Part shown: positions 1 through 59,697 of the stretch, piece after piece
Layout of the letters: each line of letters opens with the position of its first letter
How positions within the stretch are numbered: position 1 is the first letter of the stretch
Assembly (NCBI RefSeq): GCF_003019035.1
Contig: NZ_CP027448.1
DNA length: 64,000 nucleotides
DNA from: Escherichia coli
GTDB lineage: Bacteria; Pseudomonadota; Gammaproteobacteria; Enterobacterales; Enterobacteriaceae
Direction: 5' to 3' (one strand)
Translations under genes and position numbers: made by a program
Notes under the pieces: generated by a model
The model's input: only the letters and a program-made list of their open reading frames with translations
Told to the model about the DNA's origin: nothing
Database searches by the model: none

Positions 1-539
1 CGCTGTCTGTTTTCCCATTCAACACGACTGCGGCGCGCAGCAACCACTGCATCCTCAGACACATCAAGGGCGGCAAATAGCGCCGGTGTGAACGTGATAT
101 TGGTCGGAATGTAGCACCCGATAAGCGGATCATATTCCGTCTGGTAGGTAATCAGTCCCAGCTCTGCAAGGAACGTCAAGGCTCGGGTGGCCCGGGTGAT
201 GGAGAGTTTTCCGGCAGCAGACTCCGTCGCCAGTCCGCACTCAATGGCCAGCGTAGTGATGGAGCACTGGACGCGGTTGGCCAGCGGGTCATAGTGAAAA
301 CACAGCCCCTGCAGCAGCGCATCAATAGCCCGGCGACGCAGTACCGGTGGCATGCGCCGACGCAGTCCCTTCGAACGGGCATGTGCCACATGAATGGCGA
401 AATCAAAACGGGAGGTGAAGTCCACCGCCTTTTCCATCAGTTTTTCGCAGAACTTCAGCGTTCCGGCACCTTCACGGGGTGTGAATACCGGATTCGGGTT
501 CTTTACCTGGCGGTAATACGTTTGTTGAAGATCAGTCAC
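1..539 (-). CDS. repA1: RepA1 replication initiator, 5' part only (gene continues beyond window start)
   Basis: Manual minus-strand translation from a GTG at 539..537 gives [39 protein letters not shown]..., recognisable as IncFII RepA1; position downstream of copB/copA fits. Confidence 0.75.
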
Positions 540-606
540 ACCATCCTGCACTTACAATGCGCAGAAGGAGTGAGCACAGAAAGAAGTCTTGAACTTTTCC
601 GGGCAT
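532..606 (-). CDS. tap: Tap-like 24-aa leader peptide translationally coupled to repA1
   Basis: Minus-strand [27 protein letters not shown] whose stop overlaps the repA1 GTG; expected position in a RepFIIA control region. Confidence 0.5.
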
Positions 607-611
607 ATAAC

Positions 612-708
612 TATACTCCCCGCATAGCTGAATTGTTGGCTATACGGTTTTTAGATGGCCCCGGTAATCTTTCATGTCGCCAAACTTGAAGAAGATTATC
701 GGGGTTTT
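612..708 (+). ncRNA. copA: CopA-like antisense RNA (replication copy-number control)
   Basis: Two stem-loops on the plus strand (about 620..648 and 658..704) followed by a T-run at 705..708, antisense to the repA leader; ends approximate. Confidence 0.5.
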
Positions 709-822
709 CACTTTTCTGGCTCCTGTAAATCCACATCAGAACCGGTTCCCTGCCACCTTATGGCGTGGCCAGCCACAAAATTCCTTAAACGATCAGCAAT
801 CTATCACTCACGCCTGAGATAA

Positions 823-850
823 GCAATAATGTGAATATTCACATTATTGC
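823..850. promoter_or_regulatory. 28-bp perfect palindrome spanning the copB stop; candidate CopB operator at the repA promoter
   Basis: gcaataatgtgaat|attcacattattgc read directly; functional assignment is inference from RepFIIA biology. Confidence 0.4.
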
Positions 851-1096
851 TCTGCGTTTCAGCTCTGATTCAATCAGTTTTTCAAGCATCTGCGCCTGGG
901 TAATACCTTCCTCATCTGCCAGTTCACTCAGCCTGTCTTTTAAACGGGCCTGGATAACCGCATGAAAAGCCTTATGAGTGTTGCTTCTGCGAGCCAGAGA
1001 AGCCCTTTGCCTCTCTCTGGCCGGAACAGGGTTACCTTTCCGGTATGCACGCTTGTTACCTGATGAGGAAGTCACTGCATTTTCTGTCTGCGACAT
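839..1096 (-). CDS. copB: CopB/RepA2 replication regulatory protein
   Basis: 85-aa [16 protein letters not shown]...[19 protein letters not shown], recognisable as IncFII CopB; upstream of copA/repA1 as expected. Confidence 0.85.
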
Positions 1097-1335
1097 CTCG
1101 CCTCCTCAATACTTAAACAGGGATCATTTCGCAGAGGATACTACAGTTTTTTGAAATCAGCGACTTGAGAATTGTGACAAAGATCTGTGTTGGCGCACAA
1201 ATCAACGGGGATTACTGTCGTTTAATGTGATTTAAACTGTGAAATAGTATGGTTTTCAGTTATGGAAACGCCGGGAGCGGAGAAAACTTGCTTTTTCCCG
1301 TTTCCGGGGTTGGACAACTGAGCAACGCGAAGGCG

Positions 1336-1926
1336 TCAGCTACGATGTTCAGGTGGCTGCTGATCAGCCCCTGTTGTATTCAGCCATTCGCCGGTCATCT
1401 GCAGCAGTTTTCTGGCATCGTGGCTTCTGAGCAACGGTATACCAGCCTGCCTCATAACCTCTTCCAGAAGAATATCCCGGCGTCTGCGTTCCGGTCGTAA
1501 ATGGCTGGCATCATCCAGCTCTACTGCTGCAACAATACTGAACGAACGCCGCTCAACGATAACCACATCAACATGCCACTGGGACACCATCCTGAATAAC
1601 TGCCACCACTGACGTGATCGTGGCCGGATATTCCCGTTCAGCTGGACGATATCAGCGCCCCGTACCTGCGGGCACAGATACCACCGCTTCATATCCACAA
1701 TCCTGAACAACCCTTTCATGAAACTGACCTCTCTTTCTGTCAGCAACGTTTTCTGACGCTGCCAGTATTCACCGCTGACCAGTATTCGCTCAGCTTCACT
1801 GGGGCGTATGCCTGCTGCATGTAACCGTATCAGTGCGGGAGGACAGTTTTTACTCCTCCGGAATATTATCCGGACAGACAAAACAGCTATAATAATAACG
1901 ACTACAATGAAAATAATTAAATTCAT
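1336..1926 (-). CDS. Membrane-anchored hypothetical protein, possibly DUF2726/NERD-like nuclease fold
   Basis: ORF with N-terminal hydrophobic helix (MNLIIFIVVVIIIAVL) and motif HVDVVIVER...AAVELDD; likely start at 1926 rather than the track start 1995. Confidence 0.5.
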   Translation of the reverse strand: MNLIIFIVVVIIIAVLSVRIIFRRSKNCPPALIRLHAAGIRPSEAERILVSGEYWQRQKTLLTEREVSFMKGLFRIVDMKRWYLCPQVRGADIVQLNGNIRPRSRQWWQLFRMVSQWHVDVVIVERRSFSIVAAVELDDASHLRPERRRRDILLEEVMRQAGIPLLRSHDARKLLQMTGEWLNTTGADQQPPEHRS

Positions 1927-2077
1927 TATTATGTCCTTAATTACATATGAGTCCAGATGAACGAATGTAGTTTTCACCCGAAGTAAGACTCGCAATATTT
2001 ATCCCATGAATTACCTGAACGTTATCAGAAATACGACAAACCAGATCCGCAACAGATAATTCTGTTGTGATAAGGGG

Positions 2078-2740
2078 TCACCGCCTCGTTAACCAGACAA
2101 TTTTATCAGCCTGGATTTTAATTACCCCACGACGAACCAACTCACTACGTATACTAACAGCCCGTTCTTTATGCCATTCTCCTCGCATATGCGATTTTAA
2201 ATAATTATTAAACCCCTCCACTGACACCGGTAAATTCCGCACATCACTTCCGGATGCCTGCTGCATTCTGTTAGCCCACCGGATAATAACATCCCCCTCA
2301 GGGACAATCAGGTGAGATACCGGCAAATGACTCTCAGCGTGCTCTGGCGCAATACGTTCGCAACGAAAACCCCGTTTTTGCAGAGTATGAATTATTCCAT
2401 CATAGCCTTTATCGTTTGAAATAATATGCCAGGTGTTGTTTCCGGCACTGCAGCACGTCATCCTGCCGAGCTCCATAACAAGGTGAAAGTCAACATTATT
2501 CTTCGAAATGTTATCTATCTGTCTGATACTCACTCTGATATTATCTGGCCAGGTATCAGCAGGTAAGACCACTGTTTGCTGAAGAGGACCAGCAAATAAA
2601 ATCAAATCGGTATAATCAGCAAGCGATATATTTCTCAGATTGCAACAGTTTTCATAATCAATGAGCGCAATGCGTAATGCTTCATTTCTCATCATGTTTT
2701 CCATTATATATTCACCATAATAAAACAGAATAAACTGCAA
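2078..2740 (-). CDS. Hypothetical protein (possible NYN/PIN-like N-terminus)
   Basis: 220-aa ORF; N-terminal LIDYENCCN resembles a nuclease-like acidic motif; start may be an internal Met (MENMM). Confidence 0.5.
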   Translation of the reverse strand: MQFILFYYGEYIMENMMRNEALRIALIDYENCCNLRNISLADYTDLILFAGPLQQTVVLPADTWPDNIRVSIRQIDNISKNNVDFHLVMELGRMTCCSAGNNTWHIISNDKGYDGIIHTLQKRGFRCERIAPEHAESHLPVSHLIVPEGDVIIRWANRMQQASGSDVRNLPVSVEGFNNYLKSHMRGEWHKERAVSIRSELVRRGVIKIQADKIVWLTRR

Positions 2741-3115
2741 ACCCGACGCAGTGTATCTACCGGTCTGGTTAAGTTTTCATTATCGGAATATAAAATATTG
2801 TCTGCCGCCAGTCAGGCAGCCCGGAGTTCCGTGAGTGATATAACAAATCAATAAACCACCACTTAATTCATAAACATCCTTGTGTCACTATAAGCCGGTC
2901 GGTTATCCGGTGCGCCATGAGTAATCCGTTCTGAAGAACGGAAATACAGAGTGCCAGGTTGTCTCTCATAATACAAAAGCAAATTTCATGCATCATTCAG
3001 CCTCCTTACCCTGGAGAAACGGAGGCTGTTTTTTTATATTCCTGAAACACCATCCGCAATGATTCATCGCTGGTGAGTTTTATGAATTTAATCTCAAATA
3101 TGCCAGCCTCTTTAT

Positions 3116-3325
3116 TTATTCCTTCCGTCCATATTTCCGGCATCGTTCTGCGCGTAGCCGGGCAAATCGTCGCCAGTCCGCCCGGGGAGCAATTCCGGCG
3201 GCCTGACACCACGCCTCAGCAGCCTCCATCCAGAATCCACGGATTTCCAGATTAACAGCCCTGTGTCCGGTACGCTGCCAGCGCCAGACCTGGCCGTTTC
3301 GTGAACTGTTTCTGAATCCATTCAT
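3116..3325 (-). CDS. Small Arg/Trp-rich hypothetical protein
   Basis: 69-aa ORF preceded on the minus strand by AAAGGGGGACAGGAAA-ATG (good Shine-Dalgarno); no family recognised. Confidence 0.35.
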   Translation of the reverse strand: MNGFRNSSRNGQVWRWQRTGHRAVNLEIRGFWMEAAEAWCQAAGIAPRADWRRFARLRAERCRKYGRKE

Positions 3326-3429
3326 TTTCCTGTCCCCCTTTAGTTGTCAGTATTATTGTGATAAATAATTCAGTGGACTAGTTTTCTTTCGGGTACGGAA
3401 GTTATTTCCTTTTAAGCCTTATTTCCCTG

Positions 3430-3456
3430 CCTCCTCTCTCTGAGGGAGGCTTTTTT
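3430..3456 (+). terminator. Hairpin plus T-run (plus-strand orientation), role unclear
   Basis: gcctcc-loop-ggaggc followed by tttttt immediately before the finO stop region. Confidence 0.3.
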
Positions 3457-4016
3457 CATTTCTCATCAAGCACGGCCTGAAGTTCTGCCTTTATCCGGTT
3501 CTGGCGGCGGATTTTATCCAGACGCGTTGCCGCATACGCTTCCTCCTCCTGAGAAATATGCTCCGTCACATACCCTTCCGTGTCATACCGGCAGGCACCG
3601 GCTTTCATGGCACACAGATAGCTTTCTGAACGGGTGATGGCCTTCAGCGCCCTGCGCAGTTTTTTATGCGAGAGTGGGATATTCCGCTGCGCCACGTCTT
3701 CCATTAACACGTCCCGGATACCACAGGCCAGAAGCCGGGGTGTGTCACCGTCAAACAATCCCGGCCACCAGGGCTTCAGGGTGTTCACGGCCTCATCCAG
3801 CGTGGGCAGGTTCAGATAAATGGACAGCGCCTGTCTGGCCTGCGCTTTTTTTGCCGCCAGCTCCGCTTCCCGGGCTGCTTTCTCGGCCAGCTTCTGCTTT
3901 TTCACCTTCCATTTTGGTGGCGTGGTGACATTGATGATGGTTTTCCGGCTGCGGACAGGCGTCTCTCCTTCCGTTTTCCGCTTCAGTGTCAGTACAGGTC
4001 GTTTTTGCTCTGCCAT
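3456..4016 (-). CDS. finO: FinO fertility inhibition protein (RNA chaperone for FinP)
   Basis: ORF contains [40 protein letters not shown]..., near-identical to F/R100 FinO; start set at the internal Met, track ORF starts at 4091. Confidence 0.9.
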
Positions 4017-4118
4017 GCTTACTCTGACCTTCGTGAAAATATGCCCTGCAGGCCGTTGAAACAACTCATCGTAACAGGAAGTTAATTTCAACGACCTTTA
4101 ACGTATAAATACTGACAA

Positions 4119-4978
4119 TTAAAGATATTGTTTAAACCATTGTGTCTGCACAGCTACTACACGTTCAAAAAACGCGCCCTCATAAATATCATAATGGCAT
4201 GCATCAGCTTCCTCGTATAATTCCTTAGTACCAGAAGCAACAGCATCATATAATGCTCTTCCCTGTTCCGGTGGATTAACGCTATCCTGGCCGGCAATAA
4301 CAACCAAAACTGGGCACTGGACGCTGGCTGCACTCTCTGCCGGTTTATATTGCAACGTTTCCATGACCGTAAGGAAAGGTATTTTTATATCCATTTCGGG
4401 ATGCCGGGCTTTGATTTTCTCGAAGAATACCTTCGATTCATTATCACTTAGTACCCGTGTAACCCCCACAAACATCTCTTTCCCGGTGTTTTTCTTCTTC
4501 TCTGCCATTTTATTCAGCGTGGATAGAAAAGACGCTCTCTCCGATTCATTCATCTCTCCGGTAACCAGAACATCACCGTCAGCAAAAGCCAGCTGGCTGA
4601 CAATACATTTTACGCGTTGGTCCTGCGCAGCTGCACTGAAGACATGCCCCCTCCCAGCGATGTTCCCCATAACCCAATACGCTGATTATCAATACATTCC
4701 TGCTTTTCTGCCCAATTGATAACTGAAATAATATCTTCGGTCTGCATTGCAGGAACCAGACGCCCTCGTTCTCCATCACTCTCACCGAATCCTCGATAAT
4801 CAAAAGTAATCGTTGCGAATCCTGCTTCTGTGAAGGCATTCGCAAAGCAAGGGAGCAGAACATTCCTGATACCGCAAAACCCATGGCATAAGATAATCAA
4901 CGGATGTTTTATATTTCCTTCAGGAACACGAAATGTCAGGGCAATACCTTCAGAGAGTTTGTGATCCGTAATTTTCAT
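4119..4978 (-). pseudogene. Frameshifted alpha/beta-hydrolase (dienelactone-hydrolase-like) gene
   Basis: Two overlapping ORFs in different frames (4610..4978 with GxSxG elbow GLWGTSLGGG, and 4119..4670 continuing ...GHVFSAAAQDQRVK...) that read as one hydrolase if a 1-nt shift near 4620..4660 is corrected. Confidence 0.6.
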
Positions 4979-5036
4979 AAATATCCTGTGTTATGTTGTT
5001 TATTAATAATCAGAATCAGCGTCAGTATCATACCAG

Positions 5037-5783
5037 TCACAACGCCAGAATGCCCAGCACAGCCAGATGACAGGCATAGAACGTCGGGAAAAAATCCCCG
5101 GGCCAGAAACGGGGTAATGATTTCCCTGCACACGACACCAGACCAACGGTCAGCACCGTCATCACAAGACCAGCTACAGCCGCCACATCACTGATAGTAA
5201 GGTTAAGAGCAGGAATAACAGCCAGCAGGCATGTAACCAGAACCAGACTCTCCGCTCTGTATTCCGCCCGGTATACCCGGTAGCTGGCCGCTAACATCAA
5301 CACCCCGACAATACCGTAACTGGTACCGGACAAAGGCAGCCATACTGCCAGAAGCGACATAGTCCCTGCGGAACGCCACAGGCTGCGCGTTTCACACCAT
5401 GTCAGCACCTGTGCCGCAACGGCAAAGGCAAACAGGATATTCCCCTCATACCAGGGAAAGCCGGCCAGATAATATGCGAACTGGGCAATCACTGCCCATC
5501 CCCACAACCGGTTAATGGCCTCCTGCCGGATATGCGTATGACGGGACAGATTCAGCCCCCACACCAGGGCAAAAAGCGGAAAGGCTCCTCGACCGGCCAG
5601 AAACATCCACGTCTTGTCCAGATGCAGAATGCGGTTTGCATGGTCCAGTACCATCAGCACCAGTGCCACCGTTTTGATGATATCCCGCTGTCCGGGTGAC
5701 CAGACCAGCAACGACTGCAACCAGGTATCGGTCCGGGCAGCCAGTGAATCGTTACGTGTCGTGTTCGTGTTATCCGTTGTCAT
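5037..5783 (-). CDS. traX: TraX pilin N-acetylase
   Basis: ORF contains MTTDNTNTTRNDSLAARTDTWLQSLLVWSPGQRDI..., matching F TraX; start set at the internal Met. Confidence 0.9.
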   Translation of the reverse strand: MTTDNTNTTRNDSLAARTDTWLQSLLVWSPGQRDIIKTVALVLMVLDHANRILHLDKTWMFLAGRGAFPLFALVWGLNLSRHTHIRQEAINRLWGWAVIAQFAYYLAGFPWYEGNILFAFAVAAQVLTWCETRSLWRSAGTMSLLAVWLPLSGTSYGIVGVLMLAASYRVYRAEYRAESLVLVTCLLAVIPALNLTISDVAAVAGLVMTVLTVGLVSCAGKSLPRFWPGDFFPTFYACHLAVLGILAL

Positions 5784-5802
5784 CAGTGTTTGTCTTCCTG
5801 TA

Positions 5803-8800
5803 TCAGTCTCCGCCCAGGGTTTTCTCTTTCTGCAGGTCACGAACCATATCCCGCTCCATCTGCTGCAGACGCTCCTGCAGCAGATTTTCCCGGGCAACCT
5901 CCCGGACCGCTTCCCGCTCCCGTTGTGATTCACGCAGCACACTATCCGGCAGCGCGGCTTCCCGTTCAGTTATGGCAGCCCGGTCACGCTCCTGCCCGGC
6001 AATTTCCCTGACAGCCAGCTCTGTTTTGCCATCCGGCAGGTCAGGTTTGTTCTCTGCCATTTTACGGACAATTTCATCTGCGCGGCGTTCCGTTTCACGG
6101 CGGATGGCCTCTTCAGCCTGCCTCTGTGCCAGCACCTCTGCCGTGACCGGTTCGCCATTTCCGGCTCCCGGCTGGACGCTGTTGTCCGGGATATCCCCCC
6201 ACACGCGGCCACCGGTTATGGCACCGGGATTCCACGGACGGCCTTCACCGGCGATTCTTACCACCACACCACTGTCAGGATTATCACGGGCAATCCGGAC
6301 ACCATCCTGCATATTATCAGCCAGCAGGCTTTCTCCGTTACGGCTGCCCTGCAGGGCCACAAACTGTGCATCTTCACTGCCCTTCACCCGGCCTTCACCA
6401 CTGAATCCCCGCAGCCCGTTTCCGTCATCCGTGGTCAGCGGGTTCAGCCAGATACCGGCAGACTTGCCGTTACGGTCAAAAGCCGGCAGTGCCACATACG
6501 GCTGTGGGTATTTGCGCCCCGGAGCAATAAACCGTGCAGGACTGTCTCCCCCGGCCAGCCCCGCCTGACGAAGAACGGCTCGGCCTGCCGCCACGTCCCG
6601 CAGCTCCCGCGCCGTACTGAACAGCCGCTCTGCATTCATGACCTCCCGGTCCGATTTCGGCTCAAACACATCGTGGGCAGTTCCTTTCTGTTCGGCATTG
6701 TTAATGGCATCCGTCCAGCCCTGACGGTTATCGGTGTACACCTGCACATGCTGCTTCATACGCGACAGGGCCACGTAGGCTGACTCAAAGCCGGCCATCT
6801 GTTTCCGGCTGCCTTCCGTGCCTTCAAGCGCAATGGCAAAGGTTTCACTTGCCCCCTGCGCACCGTGGGCGGTGATGGCATAGGCCAGGTCAATATGTTG
6901 CTCTGCCCGCTCCTGACCGGGGCGAATCACCCGGGTCTGCTGTCCGCCCGACAGCGTGACACTGTCACCGGAAACCGCTGTCACCGTCCAGACGCTGTTG
7001 GCCACATAGCCGCGCTCCCGGTCACTCTTCGTGAAGCGCATCCGGTCACCGGTCCCCACCCGGATGGTGTCCGGGGTGTACAGTGTGACACCTTCAGCCA
7101 CCGCCTCCCGGGGCGAAATCAGCCGCGTGTTACCTTCCGCATCCTGCAGGGTTATCAGCCCGTCACCCTTACTGATACCGGCAATCCGGTGATACACATT
7201 ATCCACCAGGACAAGTGCGTCCCGATGTGTCTCCCAGGTGGAGAGACGACGCAACTCCCCGTCGCGTATATTCGCTGTGTTCAGGACAGGCACCATGACC
7301 TGCTCTTTCCCCAGCTCACCGGCCTTTTCCCGTGCATCATGAATCATGCTGTTCAGTACGCGCCGGTCCTCATTCAGGTGCGTGACAATAAGCGTCTGCT
7401 CCCGTGCTTCCGGCGTCCTGCCGGTATAGTCGCGGACAATGGCTTCATACAGTGTCATGGGGACATCCGGAAAAGCCTCGCCGTTCTGCATCGCCTTCTG
7501 CTGCGCTTCTGCCAGTTTCGCTTCCTGGCTGTGACTGAACTCCGTCACAGAGTGCTCCGGTACCCATGCGCCCTCCTGACGTGGCACCTGAGACGGTTTC
7601 ACACTCTCAAGCCCGGACAATGCCCTTTCCACATCCCGGTTAATCAGGCTGTATACCGCCTCCCGCAGTTCCGGCGTCTGACGCACAATCTCCTTCATGA
7701 TGGCCACATCGGCAGCGCTGCGCGTCTGCTGGAGACGGAAAGGCTGACCGGGCGCGATGGCCTGCAGCTGGTCCGTGTCACCGCTGGCCACTGCACGACC
7801 ACCACCGGCCGCAATCAGGGCATATGCCCGTGCCATGTCGGTATTGCCCACCATTGAGCTCTCATCGAGCAGGAACAGCGTGTTGCTGAAATCCGGCGTT
7901 TCTCCGCTGCGCAGCTGCAGCTGCGTGCCATGCAGAAAGGACGCCAGTGTCTGTGCATCCACGCCGGCGCTGCGCATCTCCCCGACCGCACGGTGCGTGG
8001 GCCCCAGCCCCACGACACGGGGACGCTCACTCTCCGGCAGCATGTTCACGGCTGACATCACCGCCCGGAACTGTGTGGTCTTACCCACACCGGCATAGCC
8101 CTGCACCACCGTGAAACGGTCGGACGTTTCCAGTATCATGCGGGTGGCGGCACGCTGTCCTGATGTCAGACTCTCCATGACTCCGCCAGGGACTCTCTCC
8201 ATCAGCGGCGTGACCGCCTCCTTACCTTCGAGAATATGGCGAAGAATGCTCTTTTCTGCCTCATACGACGCACGGGAAACCAGCAGGCCTGTGCCATAGC
8301 CTTTTGCCACATCCACATACAGTAAATCACCGCGTTTTATCTGCGCATTGATTTCCCCTCCCAGTTCAGTAAAACTGGTTCCTTCTGCAGCAAACGACTT
8401 CGCCTCTGTCAGCAGGTCCACCATGCTGAAGGCCAGGTTTTTACTTTCCAGCACAGGAAGGGCCAGATGAATGGCCTGCTGTGCCGGCGTGTGAAGCCCG
8501 GCTTTCTGCAGACTGATAGCGGTTTCCAGCAATGTCTCACCGGCACGCGCCTTTATCTGCTCAGAAACCACCGTAAAGGAGGGATGGCGGGCAAGGTTTT
8601 CCGCCGTACGGGTTTCATCCAGCGAGGAATACAGCCGGACATCACGACCGCTGCGGGCCAGACCGTTCAGGGTGGCGTTGTCCATTGCCATCTGTGTGAC
8701 GGAGGCAAAAACCTTCGCACTGTCGCTGACGGAATGCCCGGGCGTTTCCACCCAGCCGTTCTCCAGCTTCAGTGCCGTGAACGGTGAATCGCTCACAGGC

Positions 8801-11094
8801 AGGGAGGCCGGTTCAGCCCGCCCCGGCACAACAACCGTCATCGAATCTTCACTGACGGATGCCACCTGCAGGCGGTCACCGCCGGAGACGCGGAGTCCGG
8901 GAATTTTCCCTGTCACCCTCAGACGCTCGCCGTCTGCCACCGGCATTTTTTCCGGCCGGAACAGCGACCAGCTGCTGTCCAGGGAGGAAATACGCACCAC
9001 CTGCGTTTCGCCCTGCGCATCCCGCAGGGTCAGGCTGTGACTCTGCGCCGTCACCCGATCGATAACATAGAGGTCATGACTGCGTGTCTCCGGGTTCCAC
9101 TGCTCCATCACCATCCCCGGACGGTACATATCCCGCAGATAACGGCTCCGGCTGTCCAGCCAGACCGGTGACAGAGCGGTCATGGTCACCTCCGGGTGTC
9201 CGAGCACGCCCTGTGTTTTCAGCTCACTGCGAACGGCCTGTGTCAGTATGGCCTGTTCCCGTACCCCGCTGACCTGTGCCACGCTCTCTTCTCCGGCTTT
9301 CACGCTGGCCGCAAAATCTCCGGCCAGCCGGGCATAGCGGACATTACGGTCCGGTTCACTGATGATGGTGGCCGGTCGCTGTTCTCCCCCCTGCCAGCGA
9401 TATGTGTTCACCCCGGCATCTTTCATGGCCATCAGTGCACTGCCTGTACCGGTTCGCTGCCCGCTGTCGGTTATCAGGACCTGTACGTTATGACGTGCGG
9501 CACCGTCCAGCAGGGTTAACGTCTCTTTCAGGGAGAGTTTTTCGCCCTGGTCAACGATAACAGTACTGCCCAGCGTGAAGGCCATGCCTTCCAGCAGCTG
9601 ACGACGTCCGGTTATCAGCTCACCGGACAGCCGTTCATCCTGCTTCAGGTTCATCTGCGAGCGACGGTCAGCAGCGATAATCTGCACTTCCCGCCCCTGC
9701 TCCCGGGCCATCATGACCAGTTCAGCCACCCGCTCACGCTGCCCGGCTGCACCGCCCTGCCCGGACACAATGGCCAGCGACGGACGGTCCTGTGCCAGAA
9801 CACTGACGGCATCGCTGTAGCCGGCCGTCCGGGGGACACTTTTCTCCGGATGTACGGTCACCCGGTTCTGTTTCATGATATCGCGACTGAGTGCCCGGAC
9901 TGACAGTTCATCGAGCACATGAATCCCGGACGTGAACAGCCCCTTCTCACGGTCAAGGGGGATGAGTTGCTCACGGCTGATGGCCTCATCGATACCGGCG
10001 CGTGCCCGTTCAATCACACCATTTTCCGGCGGCAGTATACCGACCGTTCTGGCCAGCACGTCCGTGTACGTAAACTGCACTTTTCGTTCACTTAATCCGG
10101 CAATCGCCTGTGTCACCGCCTGCTGCACATCCGGCCCCTCCTGTGAAACAGCCCCGGGCGCCTGCGTGCGGGTCTCCGCACGCTGATCCGCCGCGTCACG
10201 ATATGCCCGGATGTCGAACCCGGTTTCCTTCAGCGTCTGCATCCATTCAGCCATTCTGACTTCAGGATCGACGTGCTGTTTGGATTTTCGCGTATCCAGT
10301 GCCGCCACATCCCGGGATTTCAGCGAGGCGTCCTCCCCGACGGCCTCCCGGATAGTCTGCGAGCGTCCAGAAAAGGCCTCCACCGGTATGCCCAGCATTT
10401 CCCACATACCGTGCTGACCCACCACTTCGGTTTCATAGCCCAGCGCCTCAACCTGCTCTTTCAGTTTTTCCCGGTAGAGCCTGCCAAAGGCAATCTGATT
10501 AGCGTACACATTCTCAATGAACCCCGTTTTCCCCACTTTGTCACTGCTCAGTGTCTTCCATTCGCCGTTATGCTGCGTGACATTAGCCACCACCGCATGC
10601 GTGTGTAACTGTGGTTCCTGATCGCGACTGGTGTCGTGGTTAAACAGTGCCATCACCAGATTACCGGTCAGCACCGTTTCTGACTGTCCGTCCGTCATCA
10701 CCCGTGTGGAGGCCAGCGCCTCCACCTGACGGACAGCAAAATCCACGGCCTGGTTATGTGCTTCAATAAGACGTTTGTCCCCCCCGAGCATGGCCATCAT
10801 GGAGACACTTTTGGGAGCGGAAAAGGTCAGGTCGTAGCCGGGACGATGCCTGTTACGGCCATCCTGCATGCGGCTTAAATCCGCCCCGTCTGGCAACCTG
10901 CCCTCCAGAAGGCGGGTAAAGACATCCTTATCGACACTGCCCTGCAGCCCCAGTTGTTCAGCCCCCTGGCCGGCCCAGCGTTCTCCCATGCTGCCCAGCA
11001 CATAGTAATTATCCTTGTCGGTATAATAGTTCCCGGCACTTCCGGCCGATCTGACCTGCGCAATACTCATCATAAACGTATATCCCTTTGACAT
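5803..11094 (-). CDS. traI: TraI relaxase/helicase
   Basis: 1763-aa ORF ...MMSIAQVRSAGSAGNYYTDKDNYYVLGSMGERWAGQGAEQLGLQG..., essentially F TraI; start may be a few codons inside the ORF. Confidence 0.97.
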   Translation of the reverse strand: MSKGYTFMMSIAQVRSAGSAGNYYTDKDNYYVLGSMGERWAGQGAEQLGLQGSVDKDVFTRLLEGRLPDGADLSRMQDGRNRHRPGYDLTFSAPKSVSMMAMLGGDKRLIEAHNQAVDFAVRQVEALASTRVMTDGQSETVLTGNLVMALFNHDTSRDQEPQLHTHAVVANVTQHNGEWKTLSSDKVGKTGFIENVYANQIAFGRLYREKLKEQVEALGYETEVVGQHGMWEMLGIPVEAFSGRSQTIREAVGEDASLKSRDVAALDTRKSKQHVDPEVRMAEWMQTLKETGFDIRAYRDAADQRAETRTQAPGAVSQEGPDVQQAVTQAIAGLSERKVQFTYTDVLARTVGILPPENGVIERARAGIDEAISREQLIPLDREKGLFTSGIHVLDELSVRALSRDIMKQNRVTVHPEKSVPRTAGYSDAVSVLAQDRPSLAIVSGQGGAAGQRERVAELVMMAREQGREVQIIAADRRSQMNLKQDERLSGELITGRRQLLEGMAFTLGSTVIVDQGEKLSLKETLTLLDGAARHNVQVLITDSGQRTGTGSALMAMKDAGVNTYRWQGGEQRPATIISEPDRNVRYARLAGDFAASVKAGEESVAQVSGVREQAILTQAVRSELKTQGVLGHPEVTMTALSPVWLDSRSRYLRDMYRPGMVMEQWNPETRSHDLYVIDRVTAQSHSLTLRDAQGETQVVRISSLDSSWSLFRPEKMPVADGERLRVTGKIPGLRVSGGDRLQVASVSEDSMTVVVPGRAEPASLPVSDSPFTALKLENGWVETPGHSVSDSAKVFASVTQMAMDNATLNGLARSGRDVRLYSSLDETRTAENLARHPSFTVVSEQIKARAGETLLETAISLQKAGLHTPAQQAIHLALPVLESKNLAFSMVDLLTEAKSFAAEGTSFTELGGEINAQIKRGDLLYVDVAKGYGTGLLVSRASYEAEKSILRHILEGKEAVTPLMERVPGGVMESLTSGQRAATRMILETSDRFTVVQGYAGVGKTTQFRAVMSAVNMLPESERPRVVGLGPTHRAVGEMRSAGVDAQTLASFLHGTQLQLRSGETPDFSNTLFLLDESSMVGNTDMARAYALIAAGGGRAVASGDTDQLQAIAPGQPFRLQQTRSAADVAIMKEIVRQTPELREAVYSLINRDVERALSGLESVKPSQVPRQEGAWVPEHSVTEFSHSQEAKLAEAQQKAMQNGEAFPDVPMTLYEAIVRDYTGRTPEAREQTLIVTHLNEDRRVLNSMIHDAREKAGELGKEQVMVPVLNTANIRDGELRRLSTWETHRDALVLVDNVYHRIAGISKGDGLITLQDAEGNTRLISPREAVAEGVTLYTPDTIRVGTGDRMRFTKSDRERGYVANSVWTVTAVSGDSVTLSGGQQTRVIRPGQERAEQHIDLAYAITAHGAQGASETFAIALEGTEGSRKQMAGFESAYVALSRMKQHVQVYTDNRQGWTDAINNAEQKGTAHDVFEPKSDREVMNAERLFSTARELRDVAAGRAVLRQAGLAGGDSPARFIAPGRKYPQPYVALPAFDRNGKSAGIWLNPLTTDDGNGLRGFSGEGRVKGSEDAQFVALQGSRNGESLLADNMQDGVRIARDNPDSGVVVRIAGEGRPWNPGAITGGRVWGDIPDNSVQPGAGNGEPVTAEVLAQRQAEEAIRRETERRADEIVRKMAENKPDLPDGKTELAVREIAGQERDRAAITEREAALPDSVLRESQREREAVREVARENLLQERLQQMERDMVRDLQKEKTLGGD

Positions 11095-11154
11095 ATCCCG
11101 GCATCAATCCCACAATGGATATACACAAGACATATCCACATAAGGAGGCAAATA

Positions 11155-11382
11155 ATGGAAACCACCGTATTTCTCAGCAACCGCAGCCAGGCGGTCAGAC
11201 TGCCAAAAGCGGTTGCATTGCCGGAAAACGTAAAACGCGTTGAAGTGATTGCTGTCGGACGAACCCGAATCATTACGCCTGCCGGAGAGACATGGGACGA
11301 ATGGTTCGACGGAAACAGTGTCAGCGCTGATTTTATGGATAACAGGGAACAGCCTGGTATGCAGGAAAGGGAGTCATTCTGA
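11155..11382 (+). CDS. vapB: VapB/VagC-type antitoxin (AbrB/SpoVT-like)
   Basis: 75-aa ORF immediately upstream of and overlapping a PIN-domain ORF; typical vagCD arrangement. Confidence 0.75.
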   Translation: METTVFLSNRSQAVRLPKAVALPENVKRVEVIAVGRTRIITPAGETWDEWFDGNSVSADFMDNREQPGMQERESF

Positions 11383-11780
11383 TGCTGAAGTTTATGCTCA
11401 ATACCAACATCTGCATTTTTACGATAAAGAACAAACCCGCCAGTGTCAGGGAACGTTTTAACCTGAACCAGGGGAGAATGTGCATCAGTTCGGTCACTCT
11501 GATGGAGCTGATATATGGTGCAGAAAAAAGCCAGATGCCTGAACGTAATCTCGCTGTGATCGAGGGATTTGTTTCCCGCATTGACGTTCTGGATTACGAC
11601 GCTGCTGCTGCCACACACACCGGCCAGATAAGAGCAGAACTTGCCCGTCAGGGACGCCCTGTCGGGCCATTTGATCAAATGATCGCAGGTCATGCCCGCA
11701 GTCGGGGACTGATTATTGTGACTAATAACACCCGGGAATTTGAACGTGTGGGCGGCCTGAGAATTGAAGACTGGAGTTGA
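11382..11780 (+). CDS. vapC: VapC/VagD PIN-domain toxin
   Basis: 132-aa ORF with PIN-like pattern (MLNTNICIF..., ...LIIVTNNTREFERV), start overlaps the antitoxin stop. Confidence 0.8.
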   Translation: MLKFMLNTNICIFTIKNKPASVRERFNLNQGRMCISSVTLMELIYGAEKSQMPERNLAVIEGFVSRIDVLDYDAAAATHTGQIRAELARQGRPVGPFDQMIAGHARSRGLIIVTNNTREFERVGGLRIEDWS

Positions 11781-11788
11781 CCTGTTCA

Positions 11789-13942
11789 TCAGAAATCATC
11801 TCCCGGCTCAACATCCTCCCCGCGCTCCCGGTGCACATTAATGTTCACCTCTTCACGACGCTGCATCTGCTGCTGGATGTCCGGATGATTTTCCTGTTGC
11901 CATGCCTCATAAGCGGCCATATCCACCACTTCACCGGATTCACTGATCCCGGGTGGCAGTTGCTGTTCCATCTCTTCTTCCGGTTTCATTTTCAGCTCCT
12001 GCTCGATCCCCCCTACCGGAACATTCACACCTGAATCTGACTTCTTATCGTTGATGGCAGGAGACACCGGCTGTTGCGGCTGTTCAGCCTGAGTCACGTC
12101 TTCTCCGGAAACAACCTCCGGGACATCCGGTTCGAAGAGGCTGGCCATCTGACGACCTTCTGCTTCCCTTGCGGCAAGTACGGCACTCAGACGGTTCTCC
12201 ATTTCCGGGTTGATGTCACGCGGAATAAACTCCGGAGCGACCTTCGGTCGTGTCTGATATTTCAGAGAGAGTTTTACTGCCGGATACGGTCCGGGCAGGG
12301 TGACATAACAGGTCAGATCCGGCAGAGACTGAATGTCGGAATAACTGACCAGCGTCTGGCGCTCCATATCCTTACCGGTCGATACCCCGTCACGTACCGG
12401 ATCAGCACCGTAGGAATACTGCTCGCTGGCTTTCAGGTGCTCTTTCTCACCAATTTCACCGGCAGCGAACTCTGCAATCTTATGGCTGGGAGAACGGAAA
12501 AAGGCACGGGTGTTCATGACGTCAAACAGCGAGGCAGCCGCTTTCTCACCGTAGATATCTTCCAGCTGGGCATAGGACTGGATACCAAACACATAACAGC
12601 CACCGAACTTACGGGCTTCCGGCAGGATCTCCACCAGGTCCGGCAGTTTGTGTAACGTGGGTAACTCATCACAGAAAAACCACACACGACGGTTACGGTT
12701 TTCTCCCATTGCCAGCAGACCACGAATGGCAATGGACAGCCACATGGAGATCACCGGCTTCAGGGAGGCATGGGTGTCGGCATTCGACGAAATAAACAGC
12801 CAGCCGTTTTTCTGATCTTCCCGGACACCACGCATCCAGTCACGGATGGTAAAAGACTCACCGTTATGCTCAATCCCCTGCAGGTAACGGATGGCTTTCA
12901 CGTAGTTGGTCAGCACAGCACGGATGGAAATCGCCGTTTTCTCAATTTTCTCTTCCACCAGGTTGGCCGCCGGTGAATTACGCAGGAAGGTACGCAGTTT
13001 TTCGATTTTGATGGAAAGCAGTGTGTCCACCAGTTTGCTGTAGCTGCGGTTGGGGTCATTACGCATCAGGTACGCCGCTTCCGCAAAAATGGTACGTCCT
13101 GACCCCTGCCAGAACGGGTCCTCTTTTGTGCCCATCGGGATCAGCGTGTTCGCGGTATTATCAAAATCCGGCTGTGTCAGGCACTCCTTCCACAAATCCC
13201 AGGCGGCACAGCGGGCATCCAGCGGATTCAGGATTTTATCGATGGAGGGATCATAGTAACTTTTAACAAATTCCCCTGAACGGTCATAAATCACCACCAT
13301 ATCTCCACGCTGACGGGCGTAGTTGGCCAGACGACGGATAACTTCCGACTTACCGGCCCCGACCGTGCCGTGCAGACAGAAGTTCTGGATTTCGGAATCC
13401 CGGATAATCGGCAGGTCGCCAATCCGTATATCGGAGTCCTTGCCGTCTTTTTTCAGCATCCGGGCAACGTCTTTCGGATTGTCTGTCAGCTGACGACCAC
13501 CTGTGACTTCATTTTCGCTCTGTTGTTTACCCTGACGCCCCAGAATCCAGGAGACAACAAAGAAGGTAATCAGGCAAATAACCAGTGCCACAACTGTGGC
13601 CAGAACGAATGCGGACCATAGCTGCTCTCCGCACCAGATCATATATTTATCATGCAGTACCTGAGCAGCATTCATCCGGAAGGTTTTGCCGTAATACTGG
13701 ATCTCATATACCGGCTGGGACTTGATTAAATCCCGCATGCCTTCCAGCGTGGTACACCACCAGTAAATACAGCCGTTCACAAACGTCTGCCAGCTTATTT
13801 TTACCCATAAAACCAGACCAACGAGTATCCAGAAAAAAATAAACAGGCAGTAAAGCATGATATTGGCGATCTGGCTGAACATGCGGATACGCATGGACGC
13901 AATCTGACCGCCCTGGGTCATATCCTTTGCGTTAAAACTCAT
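11789..13942 (-). CDS. traD: TraD type IV coupling protein
   Basis: 717-aa ORF with N-terminal TM segments, Walker A GTVGAGKS and Q/P-rich C-terminus; matches F TraD and gene order. Confidence 0.95.
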
Positions 13943-55301: not shown

Positions 55302-57530
55302 TTATCTGACTACAATATTGATATCGTTTTCCGCAACAATCAGCATCACGGCAGGTAAACCCTCCACACGCATTTTCTGGTGTAATTTTTTGATTAAATT
55401 ATCATCTTCATTACTGGCTTTTGCGGAAAAGCCTTGTGGATGGGAGTGCCATTCGCCAACATAATCGACAACACGAGCGGTCAACTGGTGAACCCGTTCT
55501 AATGCTTCTTGTTGTCCCGCTTCTCCCCGGACAAAGGAGGCTGGAGAGGATTTACTGTCGATAGGTTCAGGGAGCACGTCAACCAGAATAATCGTTTTGT
55601 TCTTAAAATCTGTTATGCCAACAATTGCACCTCCTGTTTCATTAGGCAGTGCCTGTAAGCGGGTGTGCTGCAATTTTTGCGCTAAGCCCTGGTCATATTT
55701 AACAACCCATTCGCCAGAAATTATAGATACCACGGAATAGAGTTCAATTTCATGTGCATCCATCGCGCCTGATATTTCATCAGATACCCAGATACACAAT
55801 CGAGCATTTCCTTTGAGTGCAGTCTGGCGAAGTTGGCGTGAGAGGATACCGGCATGAACATGAATACATTCACTGGACATACGTACAGAAATATCCCGAC
55901 ATCCACCACCGACCCAACGATCGCCATAATTGTGCTGTAGGTGAGTACTTCCCCACTCACTGCTCAAAATTGCCCGATAGTATTGCCCCTCAATTGCATC
56001 AATTCGGCATTGTCTGTCTACATCCTCCATTAACATCACGCTAGACTGACCCGATGGAGTCAGAAACAGGCTAACTATTCTGGGTATATCATCTTTTAAC
56101 ACTAGAGTCCTCGGCACCTCAAAGGTGGTACTGACATCCACAACTAAGTCTGCCTCATTCATTGCCTTAGCAATATCATCATCGTCATCAAGAATACTTT
56201 TATGGATCGCCTGAGGGAGGGGCTCATGCGGATAAATAGATTTGGCAATATGCTGAATAATATGGGGTTTTGAGACTCCAATATGACAATCAAACCCAAT
56301 ATGGCGAGACAAATTATGTGGAAGAAGCCGATCTGGATCAATAAAAGTCCATGTCCCCCACCCCATTCGAATCCAAATATCAGCCAATGTACTACCAAGA
56401 GCGCCAACTCCAGCTAAAATACCTCGAAAAGCTGCACTCTCTGAATCAACAGCAGATATGTCTCTCGCATGTGTGGCCTTCATAGCCGAACGTATTTCAA
56501 CTGGTAAAAGCGGTAATTGTCGCCACTTGGTACTAATTGATCCGCCAAGAAGCCGTACGCGATGCTGTACTCCTCGCTCATTTTTTGGCGCCAGCATATC
56601 TAGTGCAGTGGCAAGTTCACCGAGTGAACTTTGCACAACATAGCCCATCACATCCGTACGTTCTGTTTCTCCGTTTCTTAGACGGGGGATCCAAAGCAGG
56701 ATAAGTAAGCCTTCTCCTTTACCAGACGTTGGGCGGATACCATCACTTGGTATTGCTTCATAAACAGCGTCAGTTAGTGGTTTTAGGAGCTCACTTCCCC
56801 ATTCATTAAGTTGTTCTTCTAATTTTCCCAGATTATCCGGGTATGTAGCCACCGTAGAAACATCGACAGGAGGAACAGCAATAGTTAATAAGCGAAATGG
56901 CTTAACGCTTGAGGTATCTTGTTCTGGTACAGCCCTTAAAATAATCGGTCGCCCCTCACTGACCATCTGGAGACTGAGCTTATTGTCAGTCGCGTGATGA
57001 TAATCGGGGTAATTGGCTGGCAAAATGAGCTGATAGGGACTCAAATAAAAAAGTTGCTCAAGTGGCTGATCTTCTCGATGTAGATGCAGTTCGGCCGATT
57101 CTCTAAGCCACCAAAAAATGCGCTCAAGGAATCTCTCGGGGGTCCAACTGCGCTCAACTGCGCTCCAGGAGGCCTCATATAGGCAAAGAATTCGTGGTGA
57201 GCCAGGTTCTCCAGCATGCTGGTGAGAAAGAACAGGGAAATCTTTCCGCAATGCATGAACCAAGATAGGTATGCTTGATTTGGGATTGACCTCAATAGCC
57301 AATCGTTCTTTACGACGAATACGGGCTTGATTACCAGAAGCCACAGTCCCATCAGCAGCATCAATGATTAGATATTCCGAGCGGTTATCATTTATTTCAG
57401 AAAATCGTAATTCTCTGACTGTGACGTAAGGATGATTCTCGCATGCTTTAAGCAGCGAAATCGTTTGTGGATAAAGGCTATCGCGCCCCGATGAATCGAG
57501 GCGCTCACCCAATTCGAAATATTCGATCAT
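55302..57530 (-). CDS. Fused E2-like / E1-like (ThiF/MoeB) / JAB-MPN peptidase protein
   Basis: 742-aa ORF: N-terminal H...C pattern (HQHAGEPGSPRILCLY, UBC-like); central Rossmann GILAGVGALGSTLADIWIRMGWGTWTFIDPDRLLPHNLSRH (E1 signature); C-terminal JAMM-like EWHSHPQGFSAKASNEDD. Confidence 0.75.
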   Translation of the reverse strand: MIEYFELGERLDSSGRDSLYPQTISLLKACENHPYVTVRELRFSEINDNRSEYLIIDAADGTVASGNQARIRRKERLAIEVNPKSSIPILVHALRKDFPVLSHQHAGEPGSPRILCLYEASWSAVERSWTPERFLERIFWWLRESAELHLHREDQPLEQLFYLSPYQLILPANYPDYHHATDNKLSLQMVSEGRPIILRAVPEQDTSSVKPFRLLTIAVPPVDVSTVATYPDNLGKLEEQLNEWGSELLKPLTDAVYEAIPSDGIRPTSGKGEGLLILLWIPRLRNGETERTDVMGYVVQSSLGELATALDMLAPKNERGVQHRVRLLGGSISTKWRQLPLLPVEIRSAMKATHARDISAVDSESAAFRGILAGVGALGSTLADIWIRMGWGTWTFIDPDRLLPHNLSRHIGFDCHIGVSKPHIIQHIAKSIYPHEPLPQAIHKSILDDDDDIAKAMNEADLVVDVSTTFEVPRTLVLKDDIPRIVSLFLTPSGQSSVMLMEDVDRQCRIDAIEGQYYRAILSSEWGSTHLQHNYGDRWVGGGCRDISVRMSSECIHVHAGILSRQLRQTALKGNARLCIWVSDEISGAMDAHEIELYSVVSIISGEWVVKYDQGLAQKLQHTRLQALPNETGGAIVGITDFKNKTIILVDVLPEPIDSKSSPASFVRGEAGQQEALERVHQLTARVVDYVGEWHSHPQGFSAKASNEDDNLIKKLHQKMRVEGLPAVMLIVAENDINIVVR

Positions 57531-58714
57531 TGGTTTGATACACCTGCCCTAGGAGCGGCGGCCGTAGCAGCACTTACCGCAGCTGAAACAGCACCAACAA
57601 TAGCGGGTATTAACTTCCCGTCTCCAGCCACTTCAAATTCAAGGAACGCTGTATCTTTAAGATCCCCCGTACAGCTAAACCAACCATCAACACTGTCCAG
57701 AATATCCTCATACTCACGCTTAGCCCGGATGCACGGTGGATCATAATCATCATCAAGTATCTGATTGCTACTCGATACAATTGTTGCCCCGGAACGAGCC
57801 TGACCTAAAGCATTACGGGCCGCATCACAAACTTCAGCATTCTCCCCCCATTGTGACCAGCTATCATAGGAAAGTGAATGCCATGAACAATGATGCGGTG
57901 TGAGGAGAAGATCATATTCTAGTGCCTCAGCATTGCTTTTGTAACGATCCCATAATCGCTCCCAGATGAGAACTTCTGCGTCTCCACCTAATAGAAAGTG
58001 CATAGGATTACGGGAATATGCAGAGGGCAGTATTTTCATGTTCATGATGATACTGGATTCGTTTTTAGAAAGAGCTTCTTCCAAATATTCATCATCTTCA
58101 TGTGGTGCGGGCGCCAGAAGCTGTGCGGAGAACACTTCTGAAATTTGCCCGTCAATTCTGGTGAATGTATCTCCAGCTTTGATAAGAATGGCACTCAGAT
58201 CATCTGTTTTGCCATTAATATCTTCACCCATGATAAGGATTCGATTACCGCTAGATGCATAACCATGTTCCCGCCAGTATTTTACTCGGCGCCGTGCTTC
58301 TGTATTAAATGCCTGAGCATCTTCGCAAAGTGTGTGACTTTTGGAACGACGCCGAAAAATCAATGGTGATGACCACAATTCTCGAATAATGATACGCTTT
58401 TCTGAACGTTTCACATCGTCATCTGGATAATCTTCAGGACGGCCCAGCCAGAAATGTTTACGCAGGCCACCGCAATGATCCTGATCGGGATGACTGAGCA
58501 TAAAAACATCAATAAAGGGACGATCTTTTTCATCATACTTCAATCTGCTACGTAATGCCGAGGCAACATCAGGTGTGTCATCATTGGGGTTATCAGCAGC
58601 AGAGCGAATATGTACATCAATCAGAATGGATGTGCCCCGGGTGTCGGCCAAACGTACCAGTGTCATATCACCGTTGCCGACTTGGAAAAAAGTAATTTTG
58701 GCTGCCATCGACAT
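57527..58714 (-). CDS. Metallo-beta-lactamase-fold protein
   Basis: 395-aa ORF with HPDQDHCGG (HxHxDH metal site); stop overlaps the downstream start (ATGA). Confidence 0.8.
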   Translation of the reverse strand: MSMAAKITFFQVGNGDMTLVRLADTRGTSILIDVHIRSAADNPNDDTPDVASALRSRLKYDEKDRPFIDVFMLSHPDQDHCGGLRKHFWLGRPEDYPDDDVKRSEKRIIIRELWSSPLIFRRRSKSHTLCEDAQAFNTEARRRVKYWREHGYASSGNRILIMGEDINGKTDDLSAILIKAGDTFTRIDGQISEVFSAQLLAPAPHEDDEYLEEALSKNESSIIMNMKILPSAYSRNPMHFLLGGDAEVLIWERLWDRYKSNAEALEYDLLLTPHHCSWHSLSYDSWSQWGENAEVCDAARNALGQARSGATIVSSSNQILDDDYDPPCIRAKREYEDILDSVDGWFSCTGDLKDTAFLEFEVAGDGKLIPAIVGAVSAAVSAATAAAPRAGVSNQ

Positions 58715-58767
58715 CTCCTTTAGGGATACGAAAGATTGAGGTTAAGAGCATCTATTGCTAAGATACA

Positions 58768-58796
58768 TCTAGTAATTATACTAGTCTAGTAATTAG
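58768..58796. promoter_or_regulatory. Direct repeats in the divergent promoter region; candidate operator
   Basis: tctagtaatta at 58768..58778 and 58785..58795, in the 128-bp gap between divergent operons. Confidence 0.35.
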
Positions 58797-58842
58797 ACGT
58801 ATATTTTGGACTTAAATTGTAAGTACAGGAAATTATTGATAA

Positions 58843-59697
58843 ATGAGTGATAAAATGGTGAGAACTGGTCATTGGAGCCAAGAAAGACGGCTTGAATTCA
58901 TCGATTTTCGCCTACTGTGGGAAGGTCGGCTTAACCGTGCAGATCTCACGACATTTTTCAGAATTTCAGTTCCGCAAGCCTCATTAGATTTGGCAAAATA
59001 TCAAGAAGTTGCGCCAAACAACATGGTGTATGATCGAACTCAGAAGGCTTACATTACGACTCCTGATTTCAAACCTGTTTTTACAAGCTTTGACAGTAAT
59101 CATTACCTGAATGAACTACTTGGGCGAGAAAATGAAATAGTGGATCCTGATGATAGTTTCATTGGGTGGGTACCCCCGGTAGCCAGCCTTCCTCTCCCTG
59201 CCAGGAAAGTACAACCTGAAATATTGATTGATTTAATTCGAGCCATGCAAAGAAAACAGGCTTTGGTTGTTGATTATCGCTCAATGACTAATGAACCAGC
59301 AATTCGTACGCTATACCCAACAGCATTTGCACATGATGGGCATCGGTGGCATGTTCGTGCTTATTGTTTTAAGTCTACAATGTTTAAAGATTTTGTTCTT
59401 GGTAGGTTTTTTAAAATCGTTGAATTTGTTTCCCCACCGACATCAATTCCACAAGATGTGGACTGGAATACATTTATTGACGTGGTAATAGGTCCAAACC
59501 CTAACTACGATATGAATAAACGGCTATCTATTGAACATGATTATCAAATGGTAAAAGGAGAAGCAAAAATCCACATACGTAAAGCGCAATTATATTATCT
59601 TAATCGTCGATTAAATTTGGATGTAAATAGCGATGGTTCAATAGATGACAAACAGCAGATCATCATGCTCAGAATAGACGAGTCTAAAACCTATTAA
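58843..59697 (+). CDS. wHTH-WYL regulator (BrxR/CapW-like)
   Basis: 284-aa ORF with N-terminal HTH-like region and WYL-like segment LVVDYRSMTNEPAIRTLYPTAFAHDGHRWHVRAYCFKSTMFKDFVLGRF. Confidence 0.65.
   Translation: MSDKMVRTGHWSQERRLEFIDFRLLWEGRLNRADLTTFFRISVPQASLDLAKYQEVAPNNMVYDRTQKAYITTPDFKPVFTSFDSNHYLNELLGRENEIVDPDDSFIGWVPPVASLPLPARKVQPEILIDLIRAMQRKQALVVDYRSMTNEPAIRTLYPTAFAHDGHRWHVRAYCFKSTMFKDFVLGRFFKIVEFVSPPTSIPQDVDWNTFIDVVIGPNPNYDMNKRLSIEHDYQMVKGEAKIHIRKAQLYYLNRRLNLDVNSDGSIDDKQQIIMLRIDESKTY

Follow-up and report, generated by a model that had tools for sequence, protein, structure and literature searches.

The window analysed here is a stretch of 64,000 nucleotides from an IncF plasmid of Escherichia coli (contig NZ_CP027448.1, assembly GCF_003019035.1), and it includes the distal end of an F-like tra operon, with traI at 5803–11073. 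Between traX and finO are two open reading frames (ORFs) that overlap by 61 nt (4610–4670) in different frames, and their arrangement raises the question of whether they are two small genes, one gene broken by mutation, or one intact gene misread during sequencing. The preliminary description of this locus put the overlap at about 60 nt, placed the pair between finO and traX, and read it as a single hydrolase interrupted by an indel that was either recent and inactivating or a sequencing error in a homopolymer. The layout is as it described, with both neighbors also on the minus strand, and intact copies elsewhere are 861 nt long and encode 286 aa. The features are arranged as follows.

3456–4016, minus strand: finO, 186 aa, intact; the downstream neighbor, 102 nt beyond the uilS stop codon
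4119–4978, minus strand: uilS pseudogene, UilS-family alpha/beta-hydrolase; 860 nt, compared with 861 nt when intact
4119–4670, minus strand: C-terminal fragment ORF, 183 aa; 8 aberrant residues (MGNIAGRG) followed by native residues 112–286
4194–4196, minus strand: His262 codon CAT, putatively catalytic, in the second ORF and its frame; invariant in a 16-sequence alignment
4284–4286, minus strand: Asp232 codon GAT, putatively catalytic, in the second ORF and its frame; invariant in the same alignment
4610–4978, minus strand: N-terminal fragment ORF, 122 aa; native residues 1–111 followed by 11 aberrant residues (MSSVQLRRTNA) and then TAA at 4610–4612
4647–4651, minus strand: the lesion, a run of five G residues on the coding strand (C5 on the plus strand); intact relatives have six
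4658–4660, minus strand: Ser107 codon TCG, putative nucleophile, within G-T-S-L-G; invariant in the 16-sequence family alignment
5037–5783, minus strand: traX, 248 aa, intact; the upstream neighbor of uilS

The two ORFs match colinear parts of the same profiles and are therefore halves of one protein, in agreement with the preliminary description. In the Pfam Abhydrolase_1 profile, the first ORF corresponds to positions 1–84 and the second to positions 85–244. The pattern is repeated with NCBIfam NF047920, an equivalog model for the UilS family of quorum-quenching N-acyl-homoserine lactonases with a curated cut-off of 400 bits: the 122-aa product scores 198.4 bits (profile 1–110) and the 183-aa product 300.1 bits (profile 105–285), both below the cut-off, whereas the protein with the missing base restored scores 510.6 bits across the full profile (1–285). 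The intact plasmid gene is named uilS in the current RefSeq annotation, and, as judged from these sequence matches, the locus is a pseudogene of a UilS family member and not a member-encoding gene.

The GxSxG nucleophile elbow pointed out in the preliminary description is G105-T-S107-L-G109. Across 16 aligned homologs with 62–92% identity, residues S107, D232 and H262 never vary, and from this invariance together with the canonical order of such residues in the fold we infer that they form the catalytic triad. The closest solved structures are uncharacterized or esterase-type alpha/beta-hydrolases, of which 7qjm is the top match (E 3e-32). In the window the three residues do not reside on one polypeptide, the Ser being on the 122-aa product and the Asp and His on the 183-aa ORF.

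The lesion itself can be located exactly. Over positions 4092–5036 the sole difference between the window and NZ_CP062205.1 (E. coli C311 plasmid p1) is a 1-nt gap that reduces a run of six G residues (G6) to five (G5), and alignment of the same interval with pO157 Sakai reveals the same single gap; against locus L001 the G6/G5 difference is the only indel in 6,946 nt. As one 1-nt gap in the G6 run, and nothing else, sets the window apart from its intact relatives, this is a specific lesion and not a chance pair of ORFs, and the homopolymer indel that had been proposed can be equated with a 1-bp deletion in a mononucleotide run of an otherwise identical intact allele. The run sits three codons past the nucleophile Ser107. 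Intact copies read CTG GGA GGG GGG CAT (L108 G109 G110 G111 H112) and the window reads CTG GGA GGG GGC ATG TCT, with the frame lost after Gly111, 11 aberrant residues preceding the TAA codon, and truncation at codon 123. The deletion would have arisen through replication slippage on the G homopolymer. Of the 16 aligned sequences, 15 have Cys at residue 111 and only the repaired allele of the window has Gly, which suggests that a third Gly codon, and with it a complete G6 run, may be peculiar to this allele group.

At this locus it is the unbroken reading frame that is conserved and under selection. A 75-nt probe centred on the G run finds the intact form in 1684 of 1696 matching PLSDB records and exactly the G5 form in the other 12; among RefSeq complete E. 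coli genomes, where 1366 matching records came from 1316 of 5426 genomes, 1365 are intact and one has G5. The G5 frequency in curated complete genomes is thus about 0.07–0.7%. A homolog search returned 762 matches at E≤1e-10, and the large majority of the best 120 of these are about 286 aa in length with full query coverage, in several Enterobacterales genera; full-length homologs of this size are present in Salmonella, Citrobacter, Enterobacter, Klebsiella, Pantoea, Erwinia and other genera, and off-length entries among the best 120 are mostly labelled partial at source or are singleton clusters. The dN/dS values among plasmid uilS haplotypes are 0.07–0.28, which places the intact protein under purifying selection. 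The view that the locus natively consists of two short, separate genes can draw on OR902841.1, whose submitter annotated two coding sequences here (a hypothetical protein and aidA), but frameshifts abound in that record, where traD, vapC and traI are split as well. Moreover, either half alone falls short of the NF047920 cut-off (198 and 300 bits against 400), and a single 286-aa ORF is found in more than 99% of records and in homologs of several genera. The preliminary description would have been overturned by conservation of two short genes, but it is the 286-aa form that is near-universal in PLSDB, RefSeq and the homologs, and we regard a native two-gene arrangement as almost certainly wrong.

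Whether the missing base is a property of the plasmid or of its sequencing is the harder matter, and we consider it very probable that the uilS G deletion is real and recent, leaving an ordinary pseudogene of a 286-aa serine alpha/beta-hydrolase. Of the two alternatives left standing by the preliminary description, real mutation is favored by the cleanness of the window and by assemblies in Logan that carry G5. All ORFs of 100 aa or more in three relatives were compared with the window by tblastn, covering 53 kb of it (1–53 kb), and uilS is the only gene there that is split across frames; in TraI (1756 aa), TraX (248 aa) and FinO (186 aa) the alignment runs through without a break, and the other split matches correspond to defects in the references (such as traC and ssb-region ORFs) or to non-coding repeats. 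With uilS alone split in this screen, the possibility that the window is an error-rich assembly was rejected. The Logan assembly of SRR27538782 has 100.000% identity to the window over 10,670 nt and that of SRR27538780 has 100.000% identity over 9,236 nt, G5 included in both (these are neighboring accessions, perhaps of one study or of the window's own strain, and so are independent assemblies but perhaps not independent isolates), and there are 21 further similar contigs with the same neighbors among Logan read-set assemblies. Exact copies of the 122-aa product are encoded on 376 public contigs, and exact copies of the 183-aa product on 61. The window itself is absent from PLSDB and RefSeq complete E. 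coli, where its best match has 97.5% identity over 25 kb. A sibling, a G6 contig in GCA_012647285.1 (L031), differs from window positions 1–10978 by this base only, and contigs of this type were found in three samples. Since there is no other change in 10,978 nt relative to this G6 sibling, the deletion must be very recent, in keeping with the preliminary description of the mutation alternative; and since both G5 and G6 are reproducible within one plasmid lineage, an inherited, very recent mutation fits better than a stochastic miscall. The G5 allele is probably carried by a plasmid lineage represented by more than one assembly.

The competing explanation, that the plasmid is truly G6 with an intact uilS and that the homopolymer was miscalled, does account for much of what is seen at this position in other records. 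In 11 of the 13 other complete G5 records, traI switches frame 1 to 9 times; the lone RefSeq E. coli G5 record carries frameshift flags on traI, traX, uilS, finO and a nuclease gene alike; and 11 of the 12 PLSDB carriers of G5 have GenBank-only accessions outside RefSeq. The window departs from this pattern, with no other split gene in 53 kb, only one indel relative to two near-identical relatives, and the same G5 call repeated at 100% identity over 10.7 and 9.2 kb, as well as 21 similar contigs. The G6 sibling is likewise reproducible across several samples, and both states look stable and not stochastic. A miscall is therefore unlikely here, although an identical call can be either a true mutation or an artefact that long reads often produce, which is a caution for anyone meeting it elsewhere. 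The distinction is well illustrated by NZ_JBUXMK010000002.1, where WNL14_RS26575 has the same G5 allele and is annotated by RefSeq as a 'frameshifted' uilS pseudogene: its neighbors are frameshifted too, pointing to assembly error, whereas the lesion in the window is isolated and is repeated in other read sets. This plasmid (L003) and NZ_CP122732.1 (L004 and L005), although 'complete' RefSeq references, contain many frameshifted genes of their own (traC, trbG, parB, ssb, traI, traX and finO), and references of this kind can falsely imply indels in the window.

The same reading frame has been lost more than once. In a set of 24 shift-carrying loci compared besides the window, at least six distinct uilS haplotypes bear the −1 shift. 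In two of these loci, L021 (an ENA metagenome scaffold; 10321–10334) and L024 (GCA_002229215.1), it is the A of GGGAGGGGGG that is lost, leaving a run of nine G residues (G9); this deletion yields exactly the same 122-aa product but is a separate −1 event, and hence an independent recurrence. Of ten shift loci found through the exact product, three have intact neighbors (L018, L021 and L024) and the others are frameshift-rich. With the −1 shift present on at least six haplotypes and common in error-rich assemblies, the G tract is, as far as can be read from these sequences, a hot spot, if a modest one, at which slippage mutations and homopolymer miscalls both arise. The G9 run in L021 and L024 had prompted consideration of a longer, hypermutable G10 allele; this was rejected, because none of the 1696 PLSDB records contains G10 and G9 is explained by the A deletion.

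Recurrence of this kind invites the interpretation that the split state is put to use, either through a phase-variable or contingency G tract or through bypass by programmed frameshifting. In its favor are the repeated origin of the −1 shift on those haplotypes, including the adjacent-A deletion with its identical 122-aa product, and the occurrence of the truncated product on as many as 376 contigs. The tract, however, is only 6 G in length, with no G10 form in PLSDB; the shifted state is found in less than 1% of records, and its frequency of about 0.07–0.7% in curated complete genomes fits sporadic loss. Nor do the codons CTG GGA GGG GGC, read directly, contain a slippery heptamer of the form X XXY YYZ, and an Rfam scan of 2800–6000 found no frameshift element, or anything else, within uilS. 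(The Rfam model of a Neisseria frameshift element has a match inside finO at 3621–3650, but at 19.3 bits against a gathering score of 50, and with E 0.79, it is far below threshold.) We therefore think a functional switch of this sort highly improbable, and prefer the interpretation of the locus as an ordinary pseudogene.

The pseudogene presumably has no hydrolase activity, and neither product would be a complete enzyme, because the frameshift parts Ser107 from Asp232 and His262 and because the second ORF is without an evident ribosome binding site. The 122-aa product would retain Ser107 but not the other two residues; the 183-aa ORF would provide the Asp and His but neither the nucleophile nor the N-terminal half of the protein, and its ATG has no recognizable Shine-Dalgarno sequence upstream when the sequence is read directly.

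A second consequence could be felt downstream. If the genes are co-transcribed, the stretch of about 490 nt that now goes untranslated ahead of finO could depress expression of finO through polarity, although such a polar effect of the uilS frameshift is speculative. A simple scan of the gene strand from the uilS stop to the finO start found no promoter-like or terminator-like site. There is a weak consensus match to a promoter-like site at 5056–5027, upstream of uilS, and a weak hairpin with a T-tract at 4601–4588, just past the premature stop, and neither is counted as evidence. The IncF uilS is, we assume, the 'orf286' upstream of finO in R6-5 (that of Cram et al. 1991 and van Biesen & Frost 1992), and in 1992 van Biesen & Frost reportedly tied an elevated finO mRNA level to a 286-codon ORF lying ahead of that gene in R6-5; a literature search for 'orf286' together with finO gave no relevant text match beyond the citation of the 1992 paper in PMC7690428. 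Put together, these considerations would make the G6 tract a recurrent mutational switch, in which loss of a G turns the lactonase off, lowers FinO and partly de-represses conjugation. The occurrence of the shift on at least six haplotypes and the persistence of G5 lineages in many samples are compatible with this, and if it were true then G5 lineages would be mild 'superspreader' variants and not cases of neutral decay; the polarity step is hypothetical, however, and we give the scheme as a whole very little credence. The transfer genes of the donor strain SM10 lambda pir are presumably of the RP4/IncP type and not F-like. It was with this donor that suppression of conjugation by AHL and SdiA was described (PMC5247672), and with a donor that is not F-like the study was set aside as a direct parallel, offering only a loose rationale for a lactonase beside tra genes.

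What the intact enzyme might do is best approached through its characterized relative. UilS of Serratia marcescens is an AHL-degrading protein that is induced by urea and is under LuxR and CpxR control, its AHL degradation having been shown with biosensor assays (PMC11633161). UilS of strain RM66262 (NF047920; Tuttobene et al., mBio 2024, PMC11633161) is of the same size and has the same alpha/beta-hydrolase fold as the IncF plasmid protein, to which an AHL-lactonase role can be ascribed by family assignment, by analogy with the activity shown for the Serratia protein. The settings differ: Serratia uilS is chromosomal and lies beside luxR, whereas in the window the order is traX-uilS-finO on an IncF plasmid and the gene is broken, and control by urea, CpxR and LuxR as well as a virulence role have been shown for Serratia UilS only (PMC11633161). 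A literature search found no published functional test of the IncF plasmid homolog. AidA of Acinetobacter baumannii, an alpha/beta-hydrolase AHL lactonase, is of the same enzyme class but is a distant relative, likened to this protein through the literature and through annotation; Serratia UilS and AidA share 28% identity (PMC11633161), and the submitter's aidA label in OR902841.1 is attached to the C-terminal fragment. Much closer are the intact uilS genes of F-like plasmids (pO157 Sakai BAA31820.1 and NZ_CP062205.1 WP_069917653.1), at the same locus with the same neighbors and with 99.6–99.9% nucleotide identity, each a single ORF where the window has one G fewer and two ORFs. Going by the plasmid sequences compared, most F-like plasmids carry a 286-aa uilS between traX and finO.

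A pseudogene of a named gene, inactivated by the commonest kind of inactivating mutation, is nothing new in itself; the present analysis adds the identity of the gene and the exact base lost, and gives evidence for regarding the lesion as real and very recent and its site as recurrent. For annotation, the locus should be entered as one frameshifted uilS pseudogene and not as two hypothetical proteins. The G5 lineage of the window and the G6 contig of GCA_012647285.1 are in addition a natural pair, identical over 11 kb save for one base, which could be used to examine AHL degradation by IncF uilS, finO expression and plasmid transfer.

Several other features of the window and its relatives are recorded here. 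Between traD and traI is a 239-aa ORF (11070–11789, minus strand) with no Pfam match, whose size and position fit trbH of the F plasmid; in the close relative NZ_CP122732.1 this slot is occupied by vapBC instead. The spacer between finO and a PIN7/NYN gene matches the Rfam model AS-pc02 (antisense to pHK01_099) at 2959–3216 on the plus strand, but below threshold (27.2 bits, gathering score 40, E 0.0005). The block of finO, PIN7, DUF2726 and repA-regulator genes is present as an inverted, head-to-head duplicate in a metagenome contig (L035, 10146–12861; ENA ERZ27258076 k141_66378), probably an assembly fold-back artefact. Toward the other end of the window, a 742-aa protein encoded within 55302–58714 (minus strand) has Prok-E2_A, ThiF (E1) and Prok-JAB domains fused, and PADLOC models match it as E1-E2 and JAB, modules as in CBASS Cap2/Cap3. 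Its 395-aa upstream partner has weak LmuA-N and MBL-like matches only, a divergent WYL-domain regulator (58843–59697, plus strand) adjoins it, and no CD-NTase was seen at 55302–59697; this region may be a ubiquitin-like conjugation defence cassette on the IncF plasmid. Adjoining the cassette, at 60275–63535 on the minus strand, is a series of three ORFs (439, 316 and 350 aa), each overlapping the next; two of them have Phage_integrase domains, and the series resembles a tyrosine-recombinase trio element.
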